From Octopus vulgaris (taxonomy: Eukaryota), in the NCBI GenBank assembly GCA_951406725.2, contig OX597839.1, positions 24,614,001 to 24,678,000 on the forward strand: a stretch of DNA of 64,000 nt. Direction: 5' to 3'. The notes beneath the pieces are model-generated. The model was not told where the DNA came from. It saw nothing but the letters and a program-made list of their open reading frames with translations, and searched no databases. Below, piece after piece: positions 1,445 to 34,820 of this stretch (positions are counted from its first letter, which is position 1; each line of letters opens with the position of its first letter). The position numbers and the translations under genes were made by a program.

Positions 1445-1659
1445 ACCGCTTGCCCTACTGGCAGCAACCGCTATACCTTGCTTATACATCTCTAACAGGC
1501 CATGGATCTCCTCCTAATTTTCTCAGAGGTCACCAGGCAACAGAGTAAAGGACTCTGTCAAAAGCTTTCTCCAGGTCAATAAAAGCCAGGTACAATGGTT
1601 TACTTTTAACCAGATACATCTGCTGCAGCTGTCTCGCTGGGAAGATGGCATCTGTGGTA

Positions 1660-1662
<3 letters not shown>
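1445..1662 (-). mobile_element. Non-LTR reverse transcriptase fragment (RTE-like), decayed
   Basis: Manual minus-strand translation STTDAIFPARQLQQMYLVKSKPLYLAFIDLEKAFDRV (RT motifs), followed by stops. Confidence 0.75.
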
Positions 1663-1727
<65 letters not shown>

Positions 1728-1729
<2 letters not shown>

Positions 1730-2125
1730 TTTACTCTTTTACTTGTTTCAGTCATTTGACTGTGGCCATGCTGGAGCACTGCCTTTAATCAAGCAAATCG
1801 ACCCCAGGACTTATTCTTTTGTAAGCCCAGTACTTATTCTATCAGTCTCTTTTGCCGAACTGCTAAGTTACGGGGATGTAAACACACCAGCATCGGTTGT
1901 CAAGCGATGTTGGGGGGACAAGCACAGACACTCAAACACACACACACACATATACATATGTACGACGGGCTTCTTTCAGTTTCCGTCTACAAAATCCACT
2001 CACAAGGTTTTGGTCGGCCCGAGGCTATAGTAGAAGACATTTGCCCAAGGTGCCACGCAGTGGGACTGAACCTGGAACCATGTGGTTCGTAAGCAAGCTA
2101 TTTACCACCCCGTCACTCCTACGCC
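1728..2125 (-). mobile_element. tRNA-headed SINE family A with internal (TA/TG) microsatellite
   Basis: Near-identical to many copies in the window; family head has A-box TGGCTGTGTGG and B-box GGTTCAGTCCC; tail (GTAAAAGA)n. Confidence 0.85.
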
Positions 2126-2150
2126 TATATATATATATTTTTTTTTCAAC

Positions 2151-2355
2151 ATGTGACCGTGTGTGTATCATTGGCGATTTTCTTTCTCCGTCTTCCCTTC
2201 CTTGGACTTTTTTTTCTATATTTCTGACGAAGAGCTCCGCTCGAAATGTGAAATCCTCCTTCTTTCTTTCCTTTCTTGAGCATCCAATAACACTATACTT
2301 ATTCCATGTCCTCGCGTTGTTGTGTTTTCTCTTTGTTCATGTTTGGATTAACTGT
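2151..2355 (+). mobile_element. Penelope-like pseudo-LTR fragment with decayed hammerhead motif
   Basis: Paralog of 4285-4494, between (TA)n tracts; ATTT-CTGACGA-AGAGC-TCC-GCTC-GAAATGTG-AAAT. Confidence 0.55.
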
Positions 2356-2377
2356 ATATATATATATATATATATGG

Positions 2378-2756
2378 ATGGAAGCACTCCGTCGGTTACG
2401 ACGATGAGGGTTCCGGTTGATCCGAATCAACGGAACAGCCTGCTCGTGAAATTAACGTGTAAGTGGCTGAGCACTCCACAGACATGTGCACCCTTAACGT
2501 AGTTCTCAGGGATATTCAGCGTGACACAGAGAGTGACAAGGCCAGCCCTTTGAAATACAGGTACAACAGAAACAGGAAGTAAGAGAAAGTTGTGGTGAAA
2601 GAATACAGCAGGGATCACCACCATCCCCTGCCGGAGCCTCGTGGAACTTTTAGGTGTTTTCGCTCAATAAACACTCACAACGCCTGGGCTGGGAATCGAA
2701 ACCTCGATCCTATGACCGCGAGTCCGCTGCCCTAACCACTGGGCCATTGCGCCTCC
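2378..2756 (-). mobile_element. tRNA-headed SINE family B
   Basis: Head GGAGGCGCAATGGCCCAGTGGTTAGGGC...TTCGATTCCC; near-identical to 30965-31347, 48675-49056, 60887-61267. Confidence 0.85.
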
Positions 2757-3506
2757 ACATATATATATATACACATACACACACACATTATATGTATAAA
2801 TATATGTATATTTATTTATATATGTGTGTATGTGTGTATATACATTTATATGTTACTGAGGGTGCCAAAGCACCTATATTGCTAGAAATAAGAGCTAAAA
2901 GAGCACAATATATATACACAGACAGAGAAGGTAAGAGCCTCATGACAGCCTCCAGAATTCCCTGACAAGGCTTAGTTTTGCCTGTCTGGTAGGCATCATC
3001 AGTAGTGACTACTCAAACAGTTGATGGTTTGGCTAATTTTGTCTGCCAGTATATATACTTTTACCATAAAAATTTATGGCTGATTTAGCGAAATGCTAAT
3101 GTGCATATTAAAAATTAATATAAACAGCTAAGCACAATATAATACCATAAAGGGAAAATTTAATCCTCACTAAATGTGACTGAGGATGCTAAGACAGTCA
3201 GGGGGGGTTCCTTCCCATGTCAGTGCATATATATTGCACTTTTCATACAGCATTAAGAGTTCTTAATCCTTATCTCCTATCTCTAGATGCTTTGGCACTC
3301 GCAGCCACATTTAGTGACACTTAAAATTTTCCTTTACGTATTGTATTGTGCAAAGCTGTTTACATTAATTTTCATATACATTTCTCCAACTGGTAACTTA
3401 TTCAAATTTCCAATGGCCAATGATAAGCGTCATCTTATGCTTTGGAACTTTAAGTACCACAGAATTTGAATCAGACGGTTGAGTGCCCTTCTTTCGTTTG
3501 TCACAC

Positions 3507-29269: not shown

Positions 29270-29336
<67 letters not shown>

Positions 29337-29502
29337 CAGGAGTGGCTGTGTGGTAAGAAGCTTGCTTCTTTAAACAATTGGTTCTGGGTTCAGTCCCACA
29401 GCATGGCACCTTGGGAAAGTGTCTTCTACCATAGCCTCGGGCTGACCAAAGTGTTGTCAGTGAGTAGATTTGGTAGACAGAAACTGAAAGAAGCCCGTCA
29501 CA

Positions 29503-29545
<43 letters not shown>

Positions 29546-29550
<5 letters not shown>

Positions 29551-29968
29551 TATAAACAAGGGGAAAAGAAAAAAGATTTCTATGCCAATATGCTGAGAAT
29601 AGACTTTAAATCGTCAATCATCACATTACAATATACATTCACCATAATTACACGTTGTGCTGAAATCGAAGAAAGCAAGCTAACAGATTTTTAAAAAAAA
29701 TTCATTATCTCTATATTGAATCAATTTCAGGATTAATTCTGTTAGCTTGCCTTCCTCGATTTCAGCACGACGTGTATTTATGGTGAATGTATATTGTAAT
29801 GTGGTGATTGACGATTTAAAGTCTATTCTCAGCATATTGGCATAGAAATCTTTTATTCTTTTGCCCTTTGTTTATAATTGTTTATAATTTTCACCTTTAA
29901 AGGTATTTTAATATGCTGCCACTTCGATGGAATTTTTTGGGGAAAAAAATTTTATCCTATATTAGAAG

Positions 29969-29972
<4 letters not shown>
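29546..29972. repeat. Fold-back cassette in (TA)n (~140-bp imperfect inverted repeat plus tail)
   Basis: 29546-29687 is the imperfect reverse complement of 29738-29881. Confidence 0.85.
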
Positions 29973-29999
<27 letters not shown>

Positions 30000-30000
30000 T

Positions 30001-30466
30001 TCGAAATCGAAATCGGAATCGAAATTGAACCAATCCTATGACTGGCACCTGGCAGATGCCAAGACCCCTGGACTGGTGGTAGGTAAAAAGCACTATCCGA
30101 ATCGTGGCCGATGCCAGCGCCGCCTCGACTGGCTTTCGTGCCGGTGGCACGTAAAAAGCACCATCCGAATCGTGGCCGAAGCCAGTGCCGCCTCGACTGG
30201 CTTCTGTGCCGGTGGCACGTAAAATGTACCAATCCGACCGTGGCCGATGCCAGCCTCACCTGACACCAGTGCAGGTGGCACGTAAAAAGCACCCACTACA
30301 CTCACGGAGTGGTTGGCGTTAGGAAGGGCATCCAGCTGTAGAAACATTGCCAGATAAGACTGGAGCCTGGTGCAGCCTCCTGGCTTCCCAGATCCCCGGT
30401 CGAACCATCCAACCCATGCTAGCATGGAGAACGGACGTTAAACGATGATGATGATGATGATGATGA
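30001..30466 (+). mobile_element. Family D RTE-tail element
   Basis: Tandem GGCACGTAAAAAGCACCATCCGAATCGTGGCCG units and (GAT)n tail. Confidence 0.8.
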
Positions 30467-30471
30467 TATTC

Positions 30472-30891
30472 AGGTGCAGGAGTGGCTGTGTGGTAAGCAG
30501 CCTACTTTTCAACCACTACATGGCACCTTGAGCAAGTGTCCCCCGCTACAGCCCCAGGCTGACCAAAGCCCTGTGAGTGGATCTAGTAGACAGAAACCAA
30601 AGGAAGTCTGTCACATGTATTTATGTGTGTGTATATATATACACACACACACACACGTGTATGTATGTATATATCTATGCGCCTGTGTTCATCCTCCCCC
30701 CACCAAATACTGCCTAACAACCGACGCCGGTGTGCCCACATCTCCACAACTTACCAGTTCGGCAAAAGGGACCAACAGAATAAGAACTAGGCCCACAAAA
30801 ACAATTCTTGGGGGTCAATTTGTTCAACCAAAGGCGGTGCTCCAGCATGGCCGCAATCAAACGATTGAAACAAGTAAAAGAATAAAAGAAT
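30472..30891 (+). mobile_element. SINE family A copy with T>C hypermutation
   Basis: Collinear with 47138-47527 but with clustered T>C changes. Confidence 0.85.
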
Positions 30892-30964
30892 ATGGATAGA
30901 TAGAGAGATTACACACACACACACACACACACAAACACAAACACACACAACACACACAAATGGA

Positions 30965-31347
30965 ATGGAAGCACTCTGTCGGTTACGATGATGAGGGTTC
31001 CGGTTGATCCGAATCAACGGAATAGCCTGCTCATGAAATTAACGTGTAAGTGGCTGAGCACTCCACAGACACATGTACCCTTAACGTAGTTCTCGGGGAT
31101 ATTCAGTGTGACACAGAGAGTGACAAGGCCAGCCCTTTGAAATACAGGTACAACAGAAACAGGAAGAAAGAGTGAGAGAAAGTTGTGGTGAAAGAGTACA
31201 GCAGGGATCACCACCATCCCTGCCGGAGCGTCGTGGAGCTTTAGGTGTTTTCGCTCAATAAACATTCACAATGCACGGTCTGGGAATCGAAACCGCGATC
31301 CTACGACCGCGAGTCCGCTGCCCTAACCACTGGGCCATTGCGCCTCC
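30965..31347 (-). mobile_element. SINE family B
   Basis: Identity to the other family B copies. Confidence 0.9.
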
Positions 31348-32011
31348 ACTACACACAAACACACACACACGCACACACAAACACGCACACACAAACACAC
31401 ACACACACACACACAAACACAGACACACACAGAAACACACACACACACACGCACACACACACACACACACACACACGCCCATGCATCACGCATACCAAAT
31501 ACCAGCCATGCAATATTTCTGCAACAAACGTAACAAAGAGATAAATTACTCTTTTACTCTCTTTTACTCTTTTACTTGTTTCAGTCATTTGACTGCGGCC
31601 ATGCTGGAGCACCGCCTTTTGCTTATAAATAAATGCTTATTTCTTCGTTAATAAATTTCAAGACAAGATGTTGTTTTGTATTTTTCTCCAAAAACTCTTG
31701 AAAGCAAACAACAAAAAAACAACAACAACACCCACTGCCATATTGTATATGCAATGGATTTCAAAGATTGCATCCCACATCGGCTGCTCGTCCAGGCTTT
31801 TTCAATTTTAGATGTTTATTCTTTTATTTATTTATATGATGGCAATATTTATGGTTTTAGAAATTTCCTATCAACTTTCGTGTTGTGAATAATGACAAAA
31901 TGTGAGAAATGATCGAAGAAAGAATGTGGCTTTGATTGTTCTTTGTTGGAAAGAAGTTCGTAAGCCTTCATAAAAAATGTGTGAATTTAGAGTCCAGATT
32001 TGTTGGTTTAA

Positions 32012-34396: not shown

Positions 34397-34603
34397 TTTA
34401 CTCTTTTACTTGTTTCAGTCATTTGACTGCGGCCATGCTGGAGCACTGCCTTTTAGTCGAGCAACTCGACCCCGGGACTTATTCTTTGTAAGCCCAGTAC
34501 TCATTCTATCGGTCTCTTTTTGCCGAACCGCTAAGTGACAGGGACATAAACACACCAGCATCGGTTGTCAAGCAATGCTAGGGGGACAAACACAGACACA
34601 CAA

Positions 34604-34660
<57 letters not shown>

Positions 34661-34820
34661 TACGACGGGCTTCTTTCAGTTTCCGTCTACCAAATCCGCT
34701 CACAAGGCTTTGGTCGGCCCGAAGCTATAGTAGAAGACACTTGCCCAAGGTGCCACGCAGTGGGACTGAACCCGAAACCATGTGGTTGGTTAGCAAGCTA
34801 CTTACCACACAGCCACTCTT
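34395..34820 (-). mobile_element. SINE family A
   Basis: Identity to family A. Confidence 0.9.

Follow-up and report, generated by a model that had tools for sequence, protein, structure and literature searches.

A full-length SINE copy in Octopus vulgaris with one-strand T>C hyper-mutation, very probably of ADAR type, and sister copies across the genome that carry the mirror A>G change on the sense strand

The window analysed here is a stretch of 64,000 nucleotides of Octopus vulgaris DNA (contig OX597839.1), and the SINE copy at 30472..30891 (plus strand) in it is full-length and belongs to an abundant family that carries a central microsatellite. This focal copy is hyper-mutated from T to C, which equals A>G on the minus strand. 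Its 5' arm (30472..30612, plus) has eight conserved T>C sites (30502, 30541, 30542, 30544, 30549, 30571, 30583 and 30598) and its 3' arm (30691..30880, plus) has fourteen, located from 30693 to 30862. The central microsatellite (30613..30690, plus) was left out of the statistics. An earlier reading of this DNA, made from the sequence only, had noticed that part of the internal (TA)n reads (CA)n, and a (CA)n patch is indeed found at 30641-30656; a central run of (CA)5 or more was observed in 3 of 155 copies and is hence rare. The copy is old, with twelve of its 16 CpG decayed. A deletion of 22 bp, located near 30512 and flanked by two 4-bp repeats, takes out the putative B box of the 5' arm, the family presumably having both an A and a B box. 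ARAGORN detected no tRNA and Rfam gave sub-threshold hairpin matches only. Three TTG-to-CTA double changes lie within 30472-30891. The focal copy is probably an inert fossil without evident function.

A (GAT)n-tailed, younger repeat (30001..30468, plus; none of 51 T changed) abuts the 5' end, and a younger SINE of another family (30961..31350, minus; none of 65 T changed) lies within the downstream (CA)n tract. Both abutting repeats are only 2-3% diverged and are therefore younger than the focal copy, so they are uninformative on the original ends of its insertion; both ends adjoin microsatellites and younger insertions. Further upstream are the 5' half of a same-family copy in the same orientation (29334..29519, plus; 2 of 44 T changed) and a multi-copy inverted-repeat, MITE-like element (29548..29975, strand unassigned; 1 of 117 T changed in its 400-bp bin), and both are unedited. 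If the two intervening repeats were inserted later, the half copy would once have been nearly adjacent to the focal copy. At distances of 3.5-9 kb there are four sisters in inverted orientation: the nearest full-length one (34403..34818, minus) is a possible duplex partner and is unedited, and the others are located near 35.6, 36.3 and 39.4 kb. The T>C tract ends at the element borders, no other bin of the window is skewed, and no second edited arm was found in the window, either in the 24-38 kb interval or outside it. A multi-copy element forms the left flank, and the right unique flank gave no paralog that could mark a source locus among the best 40 of 2605 candidates. No host-gene exon was detected among the 107 ORFs scanned of 346 candidates, where only a mariner helix-turn-helix and a LINE reverse transcriptase scored above the cut-offs. 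The latter is a 641-residue open frame at 49751-51673 (minus; Pfam RVT_1, E 5.5e-32) belonging to a LINE fragment, and the former is a fragment of a mariner-type transposase at 21418-21837 (minus; Pfam HTH_48, E 1.8e-13).

Column consensuses were built from arms in the window and in 200 kb of flanking DNA, 83 for the 5' side and 78 for the 3' side, and columns were scored when they were at least 85% conserved, non-CpG and outside the central microsatellite. The alignment to a consensus that the sequence-only reading had proposed as a check gave the expected excess, with T>C at 21 of 63 positions and A>G at 2 of 72 (binomial p 9e-6, Fisher p 1.5e-6), where the background rates in sister copies are 2.3% and 2.1%. 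The chance of 21 or more T>C changes out of 63 is 1e-17 at a rate of 2.7%, 2e-12 at 5% and 4e-7 at 10%. One extra edge column brings the conserved T>C sites to 22 and the subfamily-variable columns bring them to 26, in agreement with the "roughly 25" that had been counted by eye; the coordinates and the changed runs quoted at that time were also correct. The remaining changes in the scored columns were G>A at 7 of 61, C>T at 7 of 46 and transversions at 3 of 242. It had also been claimed that A>G is rare and G>A fewer than T>C. The former holds, whereas once CpG is counted G>A is only a little rarer than T>C, as ten of the 16 CpG read CA in addition to the seven non-CpG changes. No other arm among the 161 has more than five T>C changes; the highest count among 123 whole copies was nine, and the 19 whole copies with CpG decay as high as that of the focal copy have between zero and nine.

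Only two of the 16 CpG read TG. Old copies have 435 CA against 464 TG, so that the focal skew has a post hoc p of 0.02, and CpG decay was observed to be equally skewed in 2 of 33 comparable copies. This CA-over-TG skew, which RNA editing does not explain, may be due to chance or to extra deamination of the minus strand. New CpG created by T>C changes are intact in three of five cases and original CpG in four of 16, although these numbers are very small. APOBEC DNA editing, in which sense-strand G>A would dominate, is not supported, non-CpG G>A being no more frequent than C>T (p=0.6).

It is very improbable that the focal copy reflects misassembly, amplification of a subfamily or an old copy in the chance tail, and this account is largely refuted. 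In its favour, the copy was chosen post hoc from what are probably several hundred thousand (864 kb contain 237 5' arms), and the public-run evidence consists of contigs whose kind of DNA is guessed, with no single piece across the whole element and with one run possibly being the source of the assembly itself. Against it, contigs without a single difference were found in two runs that belong to two studies with different organism labels. Run X1 covers 30555-30613 (depth 40) and 30683-30759 (depth 49), which hold 11 of the 22 sites, and run X2 covers 30545-30579 and 30562-30613, which hold four; at these sites the run contigs carry the changed letters. A contig of run X6 matches 30763-30861 with three differences, and exact 38-base (X7) and 35-base (X3) matches were excluded from the count because such lengths are compatible with chance. 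An amplified subfamily was rejected by searching the genome (2.8 Gb, 227 contigs), where the nearest other match is only 80-88% identical (best 40 of 2920 candidates) and no arm among 702 shares more than three of the 22 changes. A private stretch of 28 bases has no second genomic match within two mismatches. The 22-bp deletion is likewise no subfamily mark: one other copy (L176) has it together with only 2 of the 14 T>C sites of the 3' arm, and its presence in 2 of 316 spanning arms indicates that it is recurrent. A chance tail is opposed by the probability given above for a 5% rate. The spectrum is significantly skewed and the variants define no subfamily, and on both of these points the sequence-only reading stands.

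The 5' neighbours of the changed adenosines, read on the minus strand, were U at 8 of 14 sites, A at 8 of 14, C at 5 of 25 and G at 1 of 11. Grouped together, U or A precede the change at 16 of 28 sites and C or G at 6 of 36 (p=0.0012), while the background is flat at 1-3%. The neighbour bias that had been suggested as a check is therefore supported as the order U=A>C>G, whereas the depletion of 5' G taken alone is not significant (1 of 11 against 21 of 53, p=0.08). A 3' G neighbour has no clear effect (9 of 19 against 13 of 45, p=0.25). Upstream G depletion is general for ADARs and the downstream preference is weak in invertebrates (PMC5625713). The same source describes a hyper-editing rate in octopus that is exceptionally high, fragments of SINEs commonly occur in transcripts of octopus (PMC9115989), and in squid repeats are targets of ubiquitous editing and ADARs are broadly transcribed (PMC9068888).

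Sister copies with the opposite polarity were found by genome-wide motif searches in which each motif had three or four of the favoured sites set to the changed state (the forced sites). The three motifs for sense A>G yielded 22, 13 and 7 matches (42 in total), and with the forced sites removed 15 of the 42 have a further A>G excess at p<0.01, nine of them at p<0.001. Pooled in the same way, A>G was found at 176 of 2729 positions and T>C at 23 of 2566. The 5' neighbour rates in the 15 sense-edited sisters are 0.23 for U, 0.19 for A, 0.11 for C and 0.05 for G (U/A against C/G, p=1e-7). The minus-strand neighbours of the focal copy follow the same rank, which supports the ADAR reading. The cleanest sense-strand editing fossil found is L080 (G000:C6, locus 1185-1528, minus), a young copy in which 26 of 67 A read G (23 of 64 unforced) with one other change. 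Its central (TA)n reads (TG)n, and its 3' end and flanks, including a flanking (TA)n, are unedited. The intensity of T>C in the focal copy equals that of A>G in this sister. CpG decay is low in most sense-edited sisters, and an inverted arm within the 3-kb locus was observed for 3 of the 15. The simplest inference for the sense A>G copies is that SINE RNA was edited and then retroposed, likely repeatedly.

Several members of this class have features of their own. L074 (G000:C29, locus 1471-3025, minus) consists of at least seven tandem 5' halves followed by a full copy with 20 A>G changes in the 3' arm only. L094 and L095, about 304 kb apart on G000:C29, are both 5'-truncated and have eight A>G changes in common; they may go back to one event, through duplication or re-amplification of an edited copy. 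In L072 (G000:C24, locus ~1575-1620) telomere-like repeats are located directly 3' of the sense-edited copy. L084 (G000:C17) is an old sense-edited copy with 14 of 72 A>G and 15 of 16 CpG decayed, and the process is therefore not only recent.

The sequence-only reading had also proposed a scan of other SINE copies for T>C clusters. In unselected DNA (864 kb, 428 arms) no arm is hyper-mutated in either polarity, and the genome-wide T>C motifs recovered no second hyper-mutated copy. Nine T>C motifs gave 2, 0, 1, 0, 2, 1, 1, 0 and 0 matches, which are the focal copy, recovered by the one motif modelled on it, and six matches without a further tract. Of these six, L051 was rejected as a short deletion, L075 and L173 because just one change adds to the three that were forced, L175 and L176 because no change adds to the forced ones and L174 because it does not align to the family at the match. 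L173 (G000:C7, locus ~1510-1520) has four T>C changes in nine bases of an otherwise ordinary half copy, a local cluster or chance. Hyper-mutated copies thus number 15 from three A>G motifs against none from the eight T>C motifs independent of the focal copy. This ratio is soft, since the match between the two sets of motifs is rough and those for T>C have little power for old copies. Among young copies the usual form is clearly sense A>G, and the focal T>C copy is its rare mirror image. When 800 kb were scanned without regard to family (2425 windows with 220,663 informative positions), five of the six top loci were inspected and all five were rejected as microsatellite swaps. TA>TG and TA>CA were counted 15 against 7 times among 1487 in young copies and 49 against 53 times among 1058 in old copies, which is too weak to claim as a sign of bulk editing.

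Taken together, the confinement of A>G to one strand, the neighbour order, the presence of the changes in contigs of other runs and the failure of the subfamily account support the ADAR-type reading, and over the three ADAR routes considered jointly the focal copy is very probably of this type. The most likely route, to which we give an even chance, is that ADAR hyper-edited an antisense-SINE RNA during its pairing with a sense copy and that this RNA was subsequently reverse-transcribed into germ-line DNA. Such a route would account for the one-strand A>G cluster with ADAR neighbour order that extends over the whole element, and it would parallel the sister copies that have the same signature on the sense strand genome-wide. 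The RNA would have paired with an inverted copy located on one transcript with it or with free sense SINE RNA, a LINE reverse transcriptase would copy the edited RNA as a passenger with inosine read as G, and later CpG decay and the younger insertions on both sides would mask the insertion ends. A precedent is found among L1-made pseudogene insertions, of which 3 of 235 show T>C clusters that are limited to inverted Alus (PMC11702581). Between the two routes that had been offered at the outset, edited antisense RNA fits best, since the focal intensity is that of the RNA-edited class and L1 provides this precedent, and cDNA deamination in the hybrid is possible and less likely. Minus-strand transcription of the focal copy is predicted by this route, with no host-gene exon among the ORFs scanned. 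Against it, no edited partner arm, carried-over flank, source locus or host-gene exon was found within the scope of the searches given above.

That ADAR instead rewrote germ-line DNA directly or in place, through the cDNA strand of a retroposition hybrid or through an edited host transcript over a resident SINE, is a lesser possibility that we regard as doubtful. Its first form, in which ordinary sense SINE RNA undergoes target-primed reverse transcription and ADAR deaminates the first-strand cDNA while it is in the RNA:DNA hybrid, is unlikely. It predicts the T>C polarity, because only edits of the DNA strand would survive, together with confinement to the element and normal ends; it requires no source copy, and none was found within two mismatches; and the CpG skew also places extra deamination on the minus strand. 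However, a substrate present at every retroposition would not predict the lopsided polarity, in which T>C copies are by far the rarer class. In a matched 90-bp hybrid in vitro, editing reached only three sites, whereas 57% of the favoured sites are changed in the focal copy, and the loss of 2'-OH contacts slows the reaction about 15-fold (PMC5389660); a review of 2021 regards editing of the DNA strand in retroviral hybrids as unknown (PMC12925331). The second form, in which a resident SINE was rewritten by repair or gene conversion from the cDNA of a hyper-edited minus-strand transcript, or by R-loop DNA editing, is unlikely. It is consistent with the age of the focal copy, where most sense-edited sisters have little CpG decay, with the four inverted sisters nearby, with the failure to find a source locus through the right flank or the private stretch and with the more often intact state of the CpG made by T>C, on the very small numbers given above. 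It shows no positive marker, and it is opposed by the failure to find a host gene in the ORFs scanned and by the unedited state of the inverted sisters and of the adjacent half copy.

An origin without ADAR, through prolonged single-strand exposure of the minus strand in which both A and C are deaminated or through error-prone reverse transcription, is quite improbable. The CpG decay toward CA fits this account and both G>A and C>T are high given only three transversions, but non-CpG G>A equals C>T and the neighbour order agrees with that of the sense-edited class. Spontaneous deamination, moreover, favours C over A.

With the mirror class as an internal control, the result indicates that marks of RNA editing likely turn into heritable mutations in an animal whose ADAR activity is very high. 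If the sense A>G copies are SINE RNAs edited before retroposition, ADAR must reach germ-line retroelement RNA. The rare T>C copies would be a record of antisense carriers, of cDNA editing or of in-place write-back. Were the direct or in-place account true, the focal copy would preserve, as a natural fossil, adenosine editing on chromosomal DNA or back into it, unlike the commoner retroposed edited RNAs. As the two polarities separate the routes, a census by polarity makes direct genome alteration by ADAR testable from assemblies alone.

Several known systems resemble the focal copy in part. In the L1-made pseudogene insertions clustered T>C is likewise confined to a SINE within the reverse-transcribed RNA and is attributed to ADAR; those insertions are new, were made in cultured human cells and have a recognisable mRNA, whereas the focal copy is old, belongs to an assembled animal genome, was recovered under two organism labels and has no partner arm or carrier found (PMC11702581). 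In the avian retroviruses RAV and ALV, A>G changes at up to about half of the adenosines are fixed by reverse transcription, as is proposed here for the SINE, but they concern the viral strand of a virus in culture and not the antisense strand of a non-autonomous SINE (PMC12925331). APOBEC DNA editing of LTR retrotransposons also leaves deaminase clusters in genomic retroelement copies relative to a consensus, although through cytidine deamination of cDNA, giving G>A in LTR elements, and not through adenosine deamination in a SINE (PMC4866542, PMC2873906); the main text of the former paper, as far as it goes, leaves ADAR unmentioned. ADAR acting on DNA in RNA:DNA hybrids would yield the focal polarity, but it is known from hybrids in vitro, where it is efficient at dA-C mismatches and edits few sites when matched (PMC5389660). 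The open papers searched, with subscription journals outside that search, contained no report of germ-line ADAR-edited SINE copies. According to these sources, fixation of ADAR-hyper-edited RNA by reverse transcription is already known from avian retroviruses and from L1 insertions in culture. The present searches add the genome-wide set of sister SINE copies hyper-mutated from A to G on the sense strand.
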